From UHGV virus genome UHGV-0278189: a stretch of DNA of 41,032 bases; one strand, given 5' to 3'. Position 1 is the first letter of the stretch. Every line of letters starts with the position of its first letter. The notes under the pieces are model-generated. The model ran no database searches, was not told where the DNA came from, and saw only the letters and a list, made by a program, of their open reading frames with translations. A program made the translations under genes and the position numbers. The stretch comes from a virus. Shown here piece by piece: positions 3,491-34,836 of the stretch.

Positions 3491-6400
3491 ACGTTCTTCC
3501 AGAGACTGAATCCGCTCTTTTATCTTATCCATTTCTCTGCGCTGCCATGCTGCCTCGATATAGAATAAGAGATCAGGTCTGACCCCCCATCTAGATCCTG
3601 CTGGCGTTATTTCAACGCGCTCAATGATGTCTTCCATTACCATCACTGGATTATCATCCTCATCAACAATGATGCTCCCGTCATTATCAGTCAGCGGCAT
3701 TTCCCTTTGGCCAGTAATGACGTCATCATATACTGCGGGATAATCGTCATAGCAAAGAAAGGCATAGCGGCATGTTGTGCTTTCTTCTTCCATGAGTCCG
3801 TGAGAAATAAGAACATCACGAAGTTGCTGCGCGATTACACCATGATGTATCCTCGCCCCTTCTTCCCCCTTTATAGCGACAGCGTTCAGCCATTTATAAG
3901 CGATATACCTGACGTCACCCCAGGCATCCAGCAATGCTTCGTCAGGAGAGACCGGCTCTGTCTTTAATGTTCCGTCACTGGTAACCACAGGATTGGAGCC
4001 AAGATAAACTGTCGAGAACCTGTTTCCCGGACCACCAAGAGCATTTACATTATCAAGATAAGGTTTAACATCTCCGTTCTCAAAAAGATGTTCGAGTGCG
4101 TTATATACCGCGCGACGTGGAGTACTGCTTCCGGAACCATGCAACGTTATCATTGCACCATCTGCTGAAGACGTTGTTTCACCGCCGCTAACGATTAATC
4201 TCTGAGCGGTAACATCATCAGACGGTACTTTCTTCGCAATAATGGCGTAATTACCCTCAAGTTTGACTTCCGCGCGAACTTGTCCTGATGTACCTGCATG
4301 GACAGTCAGTGACTGGACGGCAACATCATCTGTGAAATCAACGGGTACAGGAACCGTCCTCACGCCTGACGTCGACATAAAAGTAGGAAGCGTTCTGTTA
4401 GGAGTGGCTCCGTAGACAAAATCCCTTGAAACAAATTCTTCCTGTTTAATTTTCACCCTGAAACAATACAAATCAGCCGGGTGACCATCGTGAACATAAG
4501 GATATTTTCTGTTGTTATCCCCTATGCTCCATGGGTTTAGAAAGTCTTCCCCACCGAAAATGTAGTACAGCCAGTTGTCTTTGATACAAACTGAACCAAC
4601 ACCAACCGCAGAGTTAACTATTCCGCCCTGATAAATCTGATCAGTAACATTAACCCACTCTACATTATCCAGACTCCACTCATTGACGTTAACTCTGGTC
4701 ATAAATGTTCTTGGATAATTTCCTGCATAACGGTTATCAGGTTCTCCTCCTTCCCACTCACCAAATGCGCGCTCACTGCCAAAAATAATCAGCTCATCGC
4801 CAACTTTGGCAAAAGGAAGGTTTGAGTGATGAACATTATTTGGGAAGCGAAGAGAATTCCATGATGTACCTAAATCAGAGCTTCTGTGCAATGAACTACC
4901 GGGTTGAGTACTTAATGTCCCCCTGGTCGTCAGATACAGAATGCCATCATAATATTTTACACATGGCTCAGATGCATTCGCCTCATATTCTACAGGTATG
5001 CGTCTGCGAACAAAGCTACCAGGAGAACCGAAAGCATCAGAGAAATAGAGTATCCCAAGCTCGCGTGGACCAATATCACCATTATGGTAGCCAACAGCAA
5101 AACTGTTATCGCTAATCGTCGCAAAACTGTGAATCTCAGTAACAGGAGTGCTTCCGTCAACAAAAGAAGGAATAGTTCCAAGACTGGTTTTTCTCCATGG
5201 TGACGAGTGAAATGATGTGCCAAAACTCCAGTATCTACCCTCGTTATTCTGATCCACATCCTGGGTATTTTTCGTCGTAACTGTAAAGGTATTTTTATCA
5301 ATAACAGTAGTCACCGTCATATTCCCGGTAACACCTGTAACACCAGAGTTTGAGAAGTTGACAAAATCACCAGCAAATAATCCGTGATCAGTAATGCGAA
5401 TATAAGCGACTTGCTGATTTGCTGCTTTCGTTATACCACCATAAACGCGAAGGCTGCGACTCATTGGGCGATCCCACAACTCTGCAACCTGCAGTTTATT
5501 TCCGCTCACGGTCCGCGTCTCAATTACAGCAAAAAGGCGATTTCTGACAACCCCCATACTCATGCAGTGATAGTTAACTGTGGGATAGTTTTCATGTAAA
5601 TCTGTAAGCCATTCCGGCGTTGTCCAGGTCTTCCCGTCATCTCCTGAGCGAACCCATGCAACATGGAGGTTATTTACACCATGGCGGTCTCCAGCCATAA
5701 AAGGCGCATAGATGACATTGTCATATACAAACGTTTTATCCTGCGTCCAGGCGTTGTACCACGGTGTATCTGTAATTTTAAATAACTCTCCCTGGATAAA
5801 ATCTTCAGAAGCATAAAAAAGAGGTTGGCCCGGTATTCTCTCAAATAAAAAACGAGCATTTTTAAATCGACTGACATCCGGAAGAGTTGATACTTTAAAA
5901 GTAAGCCCTAATCCGTCAATTTTATAACCTGGAGATGAGGCTTCAAGGCACGCGCTTATTGCAGTGGAATCGTCATTTATACCATCACCAACAGCTCCAA
6001 AATCTTTGGGGCTAATAGCATCACGCATTTTATCCTGGAACGTTCGGTACACAGCCCCAGAACCATACTGAATAAACCAACCAAAACCACCAACAACCCC
6101 GGAGATTGCAGCATCGACATAATTACGCATTGAGCGATTATTTACAGCGTCCTGCTCAAATGATGGATCTGCAAGGTTAGAAATTTTGTTTTGCTTTGCA
6201 TCGTAATATTTTGCAAGCAAAGATGGTTTCATCAATGCACGTCTGAACCACCCAAAACATTGCTGGATCAGCATCGTCAGATAGTCAAAGGCATCTTCAT
6301 GCACCTCGGGGAAAAATTTTCCCTGATTACGAAGATCAGTCTCCTGCACCACATCAAGCACACGATCTATCGTAATTCGCCATCCAGCAGCAAGCGGCGA

Positions 6401-6710: not shown

Positions 6711-6727
6711 ATTACCTTTCGGGTAAT
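6711..6727. promoter_or_regulatory. Operator-like palindrome TTACC-N5-GGTAA (copy 1)
   Basis: aTTACCtttcgGGTAAt between divergent tailspike and 6803 gene. Confidence 0.6.
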
Positions 6728-6802
6728 TTGCAAAACGTGCTGGATAGCAAACAAATTATTTGATACTGTATAAATATACAGTTATTGCATGGAGAAGATA
6801 AG

Positions 6803-7060
6803 ATGCAGCAGTATCACTATCCACTGGAAGACGGATTTACCGAAAGGATTCACACGCCGGGAGGCGTCAGATCACTGGTGGAGGGATCGCACTTGATGAA
6901 ATTACTCCGGGATCTCGATAAGGATGGATTTAATGTCGATGGCCCACTTGCCGAACTGACTGCACTGATTAACTACGTCACCAGCTCACAGATGTCTATG
7001 CAGGATCTGCAAACACATCTCGACTATTGTGCCGAACAATTACGAAAACAAACCACATAA
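6803..7060 (+). CDS. Small protein paralogous to the C-terminal domain of the antirepressor
   Basis: 85 aa from ATG 6803 (GGAGAA RBS at 6791-6796; ORF track starts at TTG 6785); aligns by eye with the C-terminus of the 8206-8898 product (shared LM.LL, DG, AELT, QTH..Y). Confidence 0.55.
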   Translation: MQQYHYPLEDGFTERIHTPGGVRSLVEGSHLMKLLRDLDKDGFNVDGPLAELTALINYVTSSQMSMQDLQTHLDYCAEQLRKQTT

Positions 7061-7066
7061 AGAAAA

Positions 7067-7082
7067 GGCCGCTCTAGCGGCC
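7067..7082. terminator. Bidirectional terminator between convergent genes
   Basis: GGCCGC-tcta-GCGGCC hairpin with A-rich and T-rich flanks; overlaps stop of 7082-7810 gene. Confidence 0.6.
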
Positions 7083-7810
7083 TATCGTTTCGCTTTGTGC
7101 TCGTCCCAGCACGTTTTGCACCATGCCATTAAGCCGTCCGCATTTTGATTATTAGGGTAAAAGCTAGTTCGTTTTCTGCGGACATTACAAATTGGGCACC
7201 ACTTCATATGGCGTGTATTCTTTGGGCCATCGAGACACCTTGCACACCACTTAGTCAATCCATCTGGATTTTTTGACGATTTCCTGAATTTTTCATATGG
7301 AAGGTTTATTCTGCATCGCAAGCACTGCTTGCTACCACTTGAAACTCTGTTAGCTGATTCTTCTTTTGGCGGCGATACAGAAGGTATTCTTGCTGGCTCT
7401 GATACTGCCTGAGGTGCTTTTTTAGATGACTGAGACGATATGTCATCACCAGGGAATCTTCCATGATATGCCGGACGCGTTGACACTCCGGGTGGAAGCT
7501 CAGCTGTAAACGGCTTTGGCTGAATCAGTTGCCTCTCTTTTGCTAACTCCTGCTGTTTATAATATGTCTGGATTACCGCGCTATCATAAGCAGGAGGTAC
7601 GGAAATATTAGGCGCATTATCTCCCGTTTTTTGAAACTGAGTGGAGGTGTGTTCTATCACCTGTGTACGATTAATCGTTATCTCCCCATCTTCAGTCTTT
7701 ATCGTTTTGTTATGATTAACGACCGTACGATCAGAGATCTTAGTCTTGTTCTGGTTGATAACGTAAATAATCACCGCAACCACACCAACAACTACCCAGA
7801 AAACTTCCAT
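7082..7810 (-). CDS. Single-pass membrane protein with C-terminal tandem CxxC zinc-ribbon motifs (function unknown)
   Basis: 242 aa; N-terminal TM helix (VFWVVVGVVAVIIYVI); C-terminus has four CxxC motifs (CLRC, CARC, CPIC, CKTC) in two ribbon-like pairs; GAGGA RBS; operator-like site 20 bp upstream. Confidence 0.6.
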   Translation of the reverse strand: MEVFWVVVGVVAVIIYVINQNKTKISDRTVVNHNKTIKTEDGEITINRTQVIEHTSTQFQKTGDNAPNISVPPAYDSAVIQTYYKQQELAKERQLIQPKPFTAELPPGVSTRPAYHGRFPGDDISSQSSKKAPQAVSEPARIPSVSPPKEESANRVSSGSKQCLRCRINLPYEKFRKSSKNPDGLTKWCARCLDGPKNTRHMKWCPICNVRRKRTSFYPNNQNADGLMAWCKTCWDEHKAKR

Positions 7811-7829
7811 TGCCTTTCCTCACAATAAC

Positions 7830-7846
7830 ATTACCTTAAAGGTAAT
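7830..7846. promoter_or_regulatory. Operator-like palindrome TTACC-N5-GGTAA (copy 2)
   Basis: aTTACCttaaaGGTAAt, 20 bp upstream of the 7810 start codon and in the antirepressor leader. Confidence 0.6.
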
Positions 7847-7922
7847 ATCTTGCTTTCAGGTGATCAAGCGTTAAACGCAATCAACCAAATACGGTTGATT
7901 TTAATATTTCTTCGCGTTTATC

Positions 7923-7939
7923 ATTACCTTTGCGGTAAA
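7923..7939. promoter_or_regulatory. Operator-like palindrome TTACC-N5-GGTAA (copy 3)
   Basis: aTTACCtttgcGGTAAa in the 395-bp leader upstream of the antirepressor gene. Confidence 0.6.
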
Positions 7940-8205
7940 TTTACATCGCACTCCTCTTGTGCCATAGTAATCGGGCACTGGCAAAATCCAGTGCCGGGAT
8001 TGGTCTCCCGGATTACTACAGAGGCACATATGCCGCATAAGCGGTTTTTTTATGTGTAAAGCGCACCTATTCTATGGTGGGCTGTGTGGGGGCACCGAAA
8101 GGTGCGCCGGGTTCCTTTGTAGCCGGTAAGACCAACTCTGCACAGTTCACCACCATCTGATTGGTCTCAGCGGTGGTGATTAACCTAACTACAAAGGTGA
8201 TCGCC

Positions 8206-8898
8206 ATGAATACCAAACCTTCCATCTTTTCCTTTGAGTCATCCTGCCAGATCCGTATGTTCATGATTGACGGAGAACCTTGGTTTGTCACCAAAGATGT
8301 GTGCAATGCTTTGAATATTGATGTTACACAAGCGAGAAAACTTGATAAAAAAGGCTGGAACAAAAAGGGGCTGTATTCAATACAGACCCCTGGTGGAATA
8401 CAAGAACTATCCATCGTTTCAGAATCAGGTCTCTACATCCTTATTCTGCGTTGCAAAGAGGCAATGACTGAGGGAACGAGAGCATTCAGATTTCTTGAAT
8501 GGGTTACAGGTGAGGTTCTTCCTCAGATCCGCCGCACCGGAAGTTACATTAAAAACTCGCTCCCGCAGGAAGAACGCATAAAGATGGTTGCCGACCAGGT
8601 AGCCAACGCCACAGCATCAGCAGTGATGCAGGCAATGAAGATAGAGAACAAAACCTACAGTGCCCCACTGAAGCCCGGCTACCGCAGCCTGATTCATTCT
8701 CCGTCTGGTGTTCTCGGCCTGACGGAGAACTCATTGCTTATGAATCTGCTAAACCAGTTACAGGAAGACGGGCACGACGTATCGGGCGCGGCGGCGGAGC
8801 TGACCACCATGTTCTGCTACATCGTCGGTGTGAGCAAATGCCTGCGTGATATCCAGACCCACGCGGAGTACATCAACGACAAGGCAGGGTTCTTCTGA
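8206..8898 (+). CDS. Antirepressor (Bro-N-like N-terminus, Ant/KilAC-like C-terminus)
   Basis: 230 aa from ATG 8206 with AAAGGTGA RBS (ORF track starts at TTG 8161); N-terminal segment FMIDGEPWFVTKDVCNAL typical of Bro-N/antirepressor proteins. Confidence 0.7.
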   Translation: MNTKPSIFSFESSCQIRMFMIDGEPWFVTKDVCNALNIDVTQARKLDKKGWNKKGLYSIQTPGGIQELSIVSESGLYILILRCKEAMTEGTRAFRFLEWVTGEVLPQIRRTGSYIKNSLPQEERIKMVADQVANATASAVMQAMKIENKTYSAPLKPGYRSLIHSPSGVLGLTENSLLMNLLNQLQEDGHDVSGAAAELTTMFCYIVGVSKCLRDIQTHAEYINDKAGFF

Positions 8899-26584: not shown

Positions 26585-26661
26585 GTGGCATTAGCTCAGT
26601 TGGACAGAGCAACCGCCTTCTAAGCGGTTGGTCGCAGGTTCGAATCCTGCATGCCACGCCA
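26585..26661 (+). tRNA. tRNA-Arg (anticodon UCU), phage-encoded
   Basis: 77 nt; acceptor stem GTGGCAT/ATGCCAC, D-arm GCTC..GAGC, anticodon loop CTTCTAA, T-arm GCAGG-TTCGAAT-CCTGC, discriminator G and encoded CCA. Confidence 0.85.
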
Positions 26662-33718: not shown

Positions 33719-33795
33719 TTTTTCCGCCCCTTTTTGTTATTGATATTGGCTATTTTGCACAATTGGAAAACTTGATCAACCAGATTTGGTTTTTT

Positions 33796-34251: not shown

Positions 34252-34836
34252 ATGAAAAGTATCCAGGACGTCCGCAGGCAAAATCTCAACGACTTGATCG
34301 ACCGTGAATTCAATGGTGTTCAGACGCGGATGGCTGAAAAACTTGGAACTCAGGCAAATCTGGTAAACCGCTGGGCTCTTGGCAAGAAGGTTATCGGCGA
34401 CCAGGTTGCACGAAAAATTGAAGCTGCCGCCAATAAACCCCGTAACTGGCTTGATATCGATCGCTCGCTTTCTCAGGAAGGTTTTCAGCCTGTCGGCCCA
34501 AGCGACATTGGCCAGCTGGCGGCTCACAACCTGGAACGCTGGATGAGCGAAAGCCGCGACCTTTCAACACAGGGAAAACTTCACCGCGCATCCGGCGTAG
34601 CCCAGGTGACAATCAGCCGCCTATTAAACAATGAGGTCAGCGTTTCCATTTCCACCCTGGAGAATGTTGCATCCGCATTCGGGCGTCACGGCTATGAATT
34701 ACTGATTCACCCGCACGACCCTGCGACCATCAACTATGATCGCTCGCGCTACGCATTGTTACCCGAAACCGAGAAAGCAAAGATCGAAAGTTACATTGAA
34801 TTTGTCATCAACCAGAACGAAAAAAACAAACAATAA
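34252..34836 (+). CDS. CI-like repressor with HTH motifs and no LexA-like protease domain
   Basis: 194 aa; two HTH-like segments (TQANLVNRWALGKKVIGDQVARKIE and ASGVAQVTISRLLNNEVSVSISTLENVASAFG); divergent from cro-like gene; followed by strong terminator. Confidence 0.6.
   Translation: MKSIQDVRRQNLNDLIDREFNGVQTRMAEKLGTQANLVNRWALGKKVIGDQVARKIEAAANKPRNWLDIDRSLSQEGFQPVGPSDIGQLAAHNLERWMSESRDLSTQGKLHRASGVAQVTISRLLNNEVSVSISTLENVASAFGRHGYELLIHPHDPATINYDRSRYALLPETEKAKIESYIEFVINQNEKNKQ

Follow-up and report, generated by a model that had tools for sequence, protein, structure and literature searches.

We propose, with a probability of roughly 85%, that the leader of the antirepressor gene ant in the viral genome UHGV-0278189 (41,032 nt, referred to below as the window) is an antisense-RNA cassette of the P1/P7 immI type which controls ant. 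The leader occupies a non-coding gap of 395 bp (7811–8205), bounded by the ATG of a minus-strand open reading frame (ORF; 7082–7810) on one side and the ATG of ant (8206) on the other. The original prediction, which had delimited a non-coding region of about this size and described it as a structured regulatory leader with possible small-RNA control of the antirepressor, was borne out by matches to two Rfam families, both with E-values of about 1e-14, and by target sites at the ant ribosome-binding site. The first match is an IsrK-like leader small RNA, constituting an a1b1 domain, at 7975–8051 on the plus strand (isrK, RF01394; 74.7 bits, gathering score 50, model positions 1–77); a match to c4-a1b1 (RF03163) overlaps it with 39.9 bits, under the gathering score of 46.7. 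The second is the C4 antisense RNA at 8070–8157, again on the plus strand, which covers the full-length model (RF01695; positions 1–87, 78.6 bits, gathering score 45, E=6.8e-14). This main regulator, its targets a2 and b2 and their duplicates a1 and b1 had all been missed. Most likely, the IsrK-like RNA and C4 together would keep the antirepressor untranslated, as in P1.

The C4 RNAs of phages P1 and P7 prevent the antirepressor from being made, through pairing in the neighbourhood of the ribosome-binding site (Citron and Schuster 1990, as described in PMC12197685 and PMC8198154). The window C4 carries the sequence a' (AGACCAA, 8129–8135) in a single-stranded junction and b' (CCUUUGUAG, 8114–8122) in the loop of its stem P3. 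Downstream on the same strand lie a2 (UUGGUCU, 8161–8167), the complement of a', and b2 (CUACAAAGG, 8189–8197), which overlaps the ant Shine-Dalgarno sequence AAGGUGA (8194–8200), itself ending 5 nt ahead of the AUG. Both pairings are exact, over 7/7 positions for a':a2 and 9/9 for b':b2. The repeat search returned direct repeats of the two targets (D3 and D4) upstream of C4, namely a1 (UUGGUCU, 8000–8006) in the loop of hairpin 2 of the IsrK-like RNA and b1 (CUACAGAGG, 8016–8024) in a single-stranded part of it. Pairing of a' with a1 is again exact (7/7), and that of b' with b1 comprises eight Watson-Crick pairs and one G-U. The combined 9-nt and 7-nt complementarity between C4 and the ant 5' untranslated region was equalled in one of 5000 dinucleotide shuffles of the downstream region, and no other a-then-b target pair exists elsewhere in the 41-kb window. 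The spacing from a2 to b2 is 28 nt, as against 29 nt in P1.

To this was added a comparison of 20 modules from annotated phages (P1, P7, D6, Gifsy-1, Stx2a_F723, APSE-7, Tyrion, two Klebsiella phages, Hafnia yong2, Moraxella Mcat4 and Yersinia YpM41) and IMG/VR contigs, phiV10-like ones included. A scan of viral contigs with the isrK core pattern gave eight loci, and the three with a complete isrK and C4 module were used. Rfam recognised the tandem in all 20 modules, three P1-like phages matching c4-a1b1 instead of isrK. Using an alignment-free search for exact complements of a' and b', we found the complement of a' twice in 20/20 modules, once at a constant position in the loop of hairpin 2 and once 3–15 nt after C4; the complement of b' stands 6–12 nt before the downstream ATG in 19, and the twentieth pairs via one G-U. 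The modules comprise eight a-types and 16 b-types, each of which fits its own a1/a2 or b1/b2, and the mean duplex energy is -28.0 kcal/mol for cognate versus -20.8 kcal/mol for non-cognate combinations. Compensatory changes on both sides were seen in 24 of the 47 consensus pairs, so that the check by structure and covariation across related prophages, suggested along with the small-RNA proposal, came out in its favour. A long antirepressor-type ORF directly follows b2 in APSE, Stx2a_F723, Tyrion and several others as well.

The minimum-energy fold of C4 (-43.6 kcal/mol, z-score -4.5) consists of the long stem P1 (8075–8091 with 8136–8152), P2 (8092–8096 with 8101–8105) closed by a GAAA loop (8097–8100), and P3 (8106–8110 with 8123–8127). 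Many pairs of P1 and P2 change on both sides across the 20 sequences. The conserved 5' junction UAU|GGUGGG and the 3' end ...CACC align to the annotated mature C4 of phage P1; by homology to it, the mature RNA of the window would extend from about 8076 to about 8154. C4 is a substrate of RNase P (PMC2190699). Hairpins had been noted previously at 8059–8108, and of these the GAAA-loop hairpin stands as P2 of C4. The outer pairing (8061–8068 with 8100–8107, repeat I10) was rejected as a functional element: its 5' arm is absent from relatives at or below about 83% identity, and it competes with the conserved C4 fold.

The IsrK-like RNA folds into hairpin 1 (7975–7981 with 7988–7994), in which pairs show compensatory changes, and hairpin 2 (7995–7999 with 8006–8010), with a1 in its loop. 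They are followed by an intrinsic terminator, found in the fold and by terminator scan, whose stem at 8032–8045 leads into seven U residues ending at 8051; the terminator-like hairpin with T7 run reported earlier at about 8024–8050 was thus located, and a hairpin with a T run occupies this place in 20/20 modules. The nested inverted repeats announced for 7966–8019 were recovered at 7965–8018, as I5 (7965–7975 with 8008–8018), I9 (7974–7981 with 7988–7995) and the hairpin-2 pairing. I5 corresponds to a "third stem" reported as occasional (Weinberg et al. 2010); its 5' arm lies upstream of the predicted transcription start, and Tyrion and L072 retain only part of this arm. Fold z-scores are -2.8 for the IsrK part and -5.3 for the whole leader. 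Considered for possible Hfq binding, the IsrK-like RNA has a U-rich 3' end and an A-rich loop. As a separate observation, the loop of hairpin 1, GCAAAAUC (7981–7988; columns 23–30 of alignment A1), is invariant in 17 of the 20 modules, from very different hosts, and reads GCAAAUUC in P1, P7 and D6; it is neither an a nor a b site.

A sigma-70 promoter with TG extension, TTTACA-17-CATAGT (7940–7968, plus strand), is predicted ahead of the IsrK-like RNA, with G7975 as the predicted start. Hexamers resembling -35 and -10 elements were read by eye at this position in 20/20 modules, and the P1 counterpart is the annotated promoter P1c4/P51b. When residues of the Gifsy-1 transcript are numbered from position 1 of the isrK model, the numbers agree with those published, namely the AUG at A107, the second AUG at 119–121 and residues G28, G31, C159 and C162 (PMC4825925), which means that the start mapped there is position 1 of the model.

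Alongside the anatomy of the leader, the complementarity and its co-variation, which are direct observations, we infer the following course of transcription, termination, processing and translational control. Transcription would start near G7975, TTTACA-17-CATAGT being by position the counterpart of P51b in P1 and of PisrK in Gifsy-1. By homology, most transcripts would end at the weak terminator (8032–8051), and the others would continue through C4 into ant. The IsrK-like RNA of the window would then measure about 77 nt, in agreement with the short transcript with an end near 8050 that the original prediction had foreseen. The promoter scan found no promoter-like site between the terminator and C4, so read-through would be needed for both C4 and ant. 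Following the example of P1, C4 (approximately 8076–8154) would be excised from the precursor, RNase P generating the 5' end, and in the quiescent prophage the a':a2 and b':b2 pairing would block translation of ant because b2 overlaps the ant Shine-Dalgarno sequence. Relief would be provided by a1 and b1 which, in the short RNA or in cis in the precursor, may compete for a' and b' and set the level of free C4; an excess of IsrK-like RNA would accordingly be expected to switch ant on. Such competition for C4 has already been proposed for P1, and the work on Gifsy-1 supports it. There, translation of anrP rose more than 100-fold when IsrK was provided in trans, and compensatory mutants were obtained in the pairs G28A/C162U and G31A/C159U (PMC4825925); G28A/G31A and C162U/C159U fall exactly on a1 and a', respectively. 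Lysogens show high expression of IsrK and of STnc1160, which is the "orf45'" of the IsrK paper and overlaps the C4 match.

Several points weigh against this interpretation. The promoter, the start, the efficiency of the terminator and the ends of C4 are predictions or transfers from homologues, and the protein which binds the operators described below is a candidate whose binding is itself presumed. In P1 an additional gene, icd, stands between b2 and ant (in the order c4, icd, ant1/ant2), and control is exerted partly through transcriptional polarity. In the window, which has no icd-like ORF, b2 is placed right at the ribosome-binding site of ant, and the polarity part of the mechanism may therefore differ. 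Furthermore, mutations of a1 in cis raised expression in Gifsy-1 (PMC4825925), an effect which a pure a1b1-decoy model does not predict. Finally, the lowest-energy fold of 7975–8225 pairs a1 and b1 with a' and b' in cis and leaves C4 unformed; it is the "structure A" of the Gifsy-1 paper, and may itself be an OFF or unprocessed state.

A further structure excludes the C4 fold. In this alternative hairpin, UCACCACC (8147–8154), which belongs to the 3' strand of the C4 P1 stem, pairs with GGUGGUGA (8172–8179) and encloses a2 in the loop. Over the 20 sequences 90.8% of its cells are paired and five of the eight pairs change on both sides, a covariation score that was reached in 0/500 shuffles, and the hairpin is present in the minimum-energy fold of the whole leader. 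On account of the cis fold, this alternative hairpin and the Gifsy-1 cis a1 effect, some weight is kept by a mechanism of the kind published for Gifsy-1, unlikely as we consider it. According to that model, the read-through RNA is an inactive mRNA shut by cis pairing of IsrK with "orf45", which IsrK opens in trans; the small ORF from AUG 8074 would be translated and coupled to ant, and the C4-like region would be a structured upstream ORF and not a diffusible antisense RNA. The minimum-energy fold of 7975–8225 is exactly the cis structure which it requires, the genetics of Gifsy-1 favour a cis OFF state with activation by IsrK in trans, and AUG 8074 is kept in 17 of the 20 modules. The ORF from this AUG is, however, not conserved as a coding sequence; among the 20 modules it can be as short as 8 codons or exceed 60. 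The window version has 28 codons, ends at UGA 8158–8160, 45 nt before the ant AUG, and shows no visible Shine-Dalgarno sequence, and the ORF of close relatives stops after 14–15 codons, inside C4. This length variation and the early stop led us to reject a conserved upstream ORF ("orf45") in the window. The AUG can be explained at the RNA level, since the conserved UAUGG spans the 5' end of P1 C4. The Gifsy-1 model also ignores a2 and b2, which co-vary with a' and b' in 20/20 modules.

Attenuation had been offered in the original prediction as the other possibility besides a small RNA. If it were the main control, 8032–8051 would be a regulated terminator and the structures downstream incidental. 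A terminator-like site does stand between promoter and ant in every one of the 20 modules; C4 and ant both need read-through in the absence of a promoter-like site before C4; and an alternative hairpin GGCA-CAUA-UGCC (at about 8023–8034) overlaps the 5' arm of the terminator. Yet the covarying C4 fold at 78.6 bits would be left unexplained, as would the a/b complementarity at the ribosome-binding site and its co-variation, and a conserved anti-terminator was not found. In Gifsy-1, transcriptional fusions changed 8-fold versus 139-fold for translational ones (PMC4825925). We therefore retain the small-RNA half of that proposal and regard attenuation as improbable in the leading role and at most secondary.

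The comparison that had been drawn with the sar RNA of P22 did not hold. In P22 immI (sar, arc, mnt, ant), as proposed for the window, translation of the antirepressor is held down by a small RNA that pairs at the ribosome-binding site. The sar RNA is a cis-antisense transcript of the opposite strand and perfectly complementary to its target, whereas the window regulator is encoded upstream on the same strand and pairs by way of a couple of short loops, with decoy copies of its target sites present as well. A control of the sar type would call for an opposite-strand RNA over the ant ribosome-binding site and for operators of the Arc/Mnt type. The general analogy of an antirepressor gene behind palindromic operators speaks for it, and in the phiV10-like relative L057 the ant gene is followed, after about 2 kb, by a P22-type sar match (5733–5800, 44.8 bits). 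Against this, sar (RF00262) gave no match in the window at gathering level and none at E<=10 in 7700–8400, the promoter scan detected no minus-strand promoter-like site in 7811–8205, both RNA genes are on the ant strand, and the operators belong to a set of 15 spread over the genome and do not form a local Mnt/Arc pair. The chance of this arrangement is close to nil.

Hardly more credible is that the leader is a protein-coding region, even though ORFs exist at 7850–8059 (plus), 7901–8038 (minus) and 8067–8414 (minus), and in many close relatives the first of them has stayed open. All three coincide with the promoter, an operator and the two RNA genes, which covary, the last ORF running antisense to C4 and ant. 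ORF 7850–8059 begins with TTG, crosses promoter, operator and RNA genes, has an in-frame stop in relative L079, and has an altered C-terminus wherever the RNA module differs; like ORF 8067–8414, it had been described before as looking spurious, and it looks so to us too. In addition, the RNA loops of close relatives differ by single-base insertions and deletions.

The C4 cassette is preceded by two operators, as had been noted. O1 (ATTACCTTAAAGGTAAT, 7830–7846), a perfect palindrome that is unchanged in 20 relatives, precedes the start codon of the divergent gene 7082–7810 by 20 nt. O2 (ATTACCTTTGCGGTAAA, 7923–7939) adjoins the -35 element of the IsrK/C4 promoter, its centre lying about 44 nt upstream of the predicted start; in relatives its half-sites are unchanged and the 5-nt spacer is variable. 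A search of the whole window for ATTACC-N5-GGTAAT with at most two mismatches revealed 15 sites versus 1.4 expected, a number not reached in any of 100 shuffles. By the ORF table most are intergenic, and the 17-bp sites listed are at 6711, 7830, 7923, 8964, 26247, 29398, 29416, 31832, 31894, 33796, 34181, 34893 and 34955. Dispersed in this way, the operators look like the regulon of a single repressor, comparable to that of C1 in P1. The prophage repressor presumably binds them, and the candidate is a 194 amino acid protein with two helix-turn-helix (HTH) motifs (34252–34836), the gene of which has operator-motif sites on both sides.

Between O1 and O2 lies the 22-bp palindrome AATCAACC-N6-GGTTGATT (7879–7886 with 7893–7900, plus strand). 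It was recovered by the inverted-repeat search as described before, although as a palindrome it is not maintained: in relatives the left arm varies (AACCAACC, CACCAACC, CATAAACC) with no compensating change on the right, and only CAACC/GGTTG and the right arm are kept. A site for a second regulator was considered and rejected, as the outer bases drift and the copy count is not above chance; one other loose copy, with two mismatches, is at 33775. The right arm is likely a -35 element. The promoter scan gave a candidate upstream promoter here, TTGATT-18-TATCAT (7895–7900 and 7919–7924, plus strand; 9/12), both hexamers of which are unchanged in relatives and whose start region would fall within O2. 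In P1 a repressor-controlled c4 promoter, P51a, stands ahead of P51b, and TTGATT-18-TATCAT would be the functional parallel in the window.

The regulated cargo, ant (8206–8898, plus strand), codes for a 230 amino acid antirepressor with a Bro-N domain (Pfam, E=1.8e-13), homologues of which carry an anti-repressor annotation in phages phiV10 and Tyrion. The window is a phiV10-like (Uetakevirus) prophage of E. coli, and the 194 amino acid double-HTH protein is 100% identical to the repressors of phiV10 and vB_EcoP_ZX5. In ZX5, over-expression of the Bro-N anti-repressor encoded at the same position promoted the lytic cycle, and over-expression of the repressor blocks it (PMC9782041). Homology of Ant to AnrP of Gifsy-1 or to Ant1 of P1 was not found, the comparison with Ant1 giving E=0.016 over a short stretch, and a scan of genome contigs with the Ant protein gave 61 pattern matches, 0 of which encode a relative. 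The Bro-N N-terminal parts of Ant are swapped among relatives and the C-terminal half is nearly identical. A free-standing copy of the C-terminal domain also occurs in the window, in the form of a 91 amino acid ORF (6785–7060, plus strand) with its own operator at 6711; this ORF is paralogous to the last 80 residues of Ant (42% identity, E=1e-19).

Among known systems, immI of P1 and P7 has the same order of elements, namely operator, promoter(s), a1, b1, terminator-like hairpin, C4, a2, b2 at the ribosome-binding site, and antirepressor. The C4 fold, the positions of a' and b', the many dispersed operators of the main repressor, and a specificity set by a few bases in a and b are likewise shared. 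Apart from icd, which is a feature of the P1 operon and not of the C4 RNA family, the differences are that the window antirepressor, a Bro-N protein, has no relationship to Ant1 of P1; that the a1b1 domain matches isrK at gathering level and not c4-a1b1, and has a clear U7 terminator; that the double-HTH repressor would have palindromic 17-mers as its operators, whereas the C1 sites of P1 are asymmetric; and that the host is a 40-kb integrating podovirus and P1 a plasmid prophage.

The isrK-orf45-anrP region of Gifsy-1 (Hershko-Shalev et al. 2016, PMC4825925) has a homologous IsrK RNA (79.3 bits, compared with 74.7 in the window), a C4-family RNA after a gap of about 25 nt (18 nt in the window), a promoter position and start site that agree with those predicted for the window, and the same a1:a' pairing, there tested by compensatory mutations. 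It differs in that AnrP is an ORF6N protein with no similarity to the window Ant, in its b specificity, and in its 45-codon upstream ORF, the stop of which overlaps the anrP start where the 28-codon ORF of the window stops short of ant. The published model, in the parts of the paper available to us, is formulated without a2/b2 or C4. The APSE phages of Hamiltonella (bioRxiv 10.1101/2020.03.17.996009; LR794147) have isrK and C4 followed by a Bro-N gene, with a' and b' annotated and b2 in the region upstream of that gene, and this pair is the closest published description of a module lacking icd. APSE has approximately 70% nucleotide identity to the window, other specificities (a UUGAGAC, b CUAACAAGG) and another host phage, and no ATTACC-N5-GGTAAT operator upstream. 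Since Rfam recognises both RNAs and the Bro-N arrangement without icd has been described for APSE, the kind of leader was already known; that of the window is an unannotated, ordinary member of a known system, and its mechanism is not new.

The bases in a and b define an immunity specificity apart from that of the protein repressor. The leader of phiV10 (L002, DQ126339; 2539–2790) differs from that of the window in both a (UUGGCGU versus UUGGUCU) and b (CUAAAAGG versus CUACAAAGG), while the repressors are 100% identical. The calculated discrimination between window and phiV10 is -21.8 versus -9.8 kcal/mol, equal in size to that of the P1/P7 control (-20.2 versus -8.2 kcal/mol). The identical repressor combined with different a and b sequences predicts heteroimmunity of the P1/P7 style among phiV10-like prophages. 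Mosaic relationships are seen among the relatives, L075, L070, L079 and others included: some are 98–99% identical to the window in the operator/promoter part (7811–7975) and only 77% in the RNA module (7975–8205), as L075 is with 99% upstream and 77% in the module, whereas others show the opposite pattern. Promoter region and RNA module thus recombine independently, so that recombination at the boundary between the two exchanges the a/b specificity.

At the isrK locus of Gifsy-1 (L101, NC_010392; 34131–34214 and 34240–34316, minus strand), the "orf45"/STnc1160 sequence scores 69 bits as C4. This sequence is homologous to C4, with IsrK as the a1b1 domain that goes with it. Tentatively, we go further and suggest that the IsrK and c4 systems are one portable cassette, that its specificity letters are swapped by recombination among prophages with a shared repressor, and that the window prophage and phiV10 are heteroimmune; this is possible, though we would not call it probable. 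If true, the antirepressor of a superinfecting relative would escape the resident C4 and could induce the resident prophage, and Enterobacter phage Tyrion and Klebsiella phage ST512-KPC3phi13.3, which come from other genera and have the same a/b code, would be cross-repressed. For phiV10/epsilon15-like podoviruses, P1-type C4 control of a Bro-N antirepressor amounts to a second, RNA-encoded immunity specificity beside the repressor, and a/b specificity predicts which related prophages induce or exclude each other. It also joins the literatures on P1 c4 and Salmonella IsrK, which describe the same cassette in different terms.

The searchable literature still treats IsrK and C4 separately, and "orf45" as an ORF. 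In the accessible portions of the IsrK paper (PMC4825925) the term "RNase P" is absent and a mention of C4 was not found; a 2025 review deals with IsrK and c4 in different places and draws no link; and none was found in the first 200 supplementary files of the paper defining the C4 and c4-a1b1 motifs. The word "sRNA" does not occur in the ZX5 paper (PMC9782041), and the literature searched on phiV10-like phages makes no mention of the module. A leader of this type is present in about 480 of 5426 complete E. coli genomes, and the best-matching RefSeq E. coli records have no feature annotated over it. In E. coli K_EC180 and APEC E18055 the leader is identical to that of the window. Elsewhere, protein-coding annotations cross the isrK/C4 genes, at 988–1671 in Hafnia phage yong2 (L095), 1339–1626 in L097 and 1220–1345 in L096, and likewise at 1781–2063 in ZX5 (MW722083). 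They include an "Ash family protein" and hypothetical proteins, and are probably mis-called starts or spurious ORFs.

Two further features were noted in passing. A tRNA-Arg gene with anticodon TCT (26585–26661, plus strand) lies inside the prophage. Type II hammerhead ribozymes (52–69 bits) were detected in L086 (721–790 and 2899–2970) and L088 (2177–2269 and 4771–4835), both GC-rich IMG/VR phage contigs, within 1–2 kb on either side of the isrK/C4 module.

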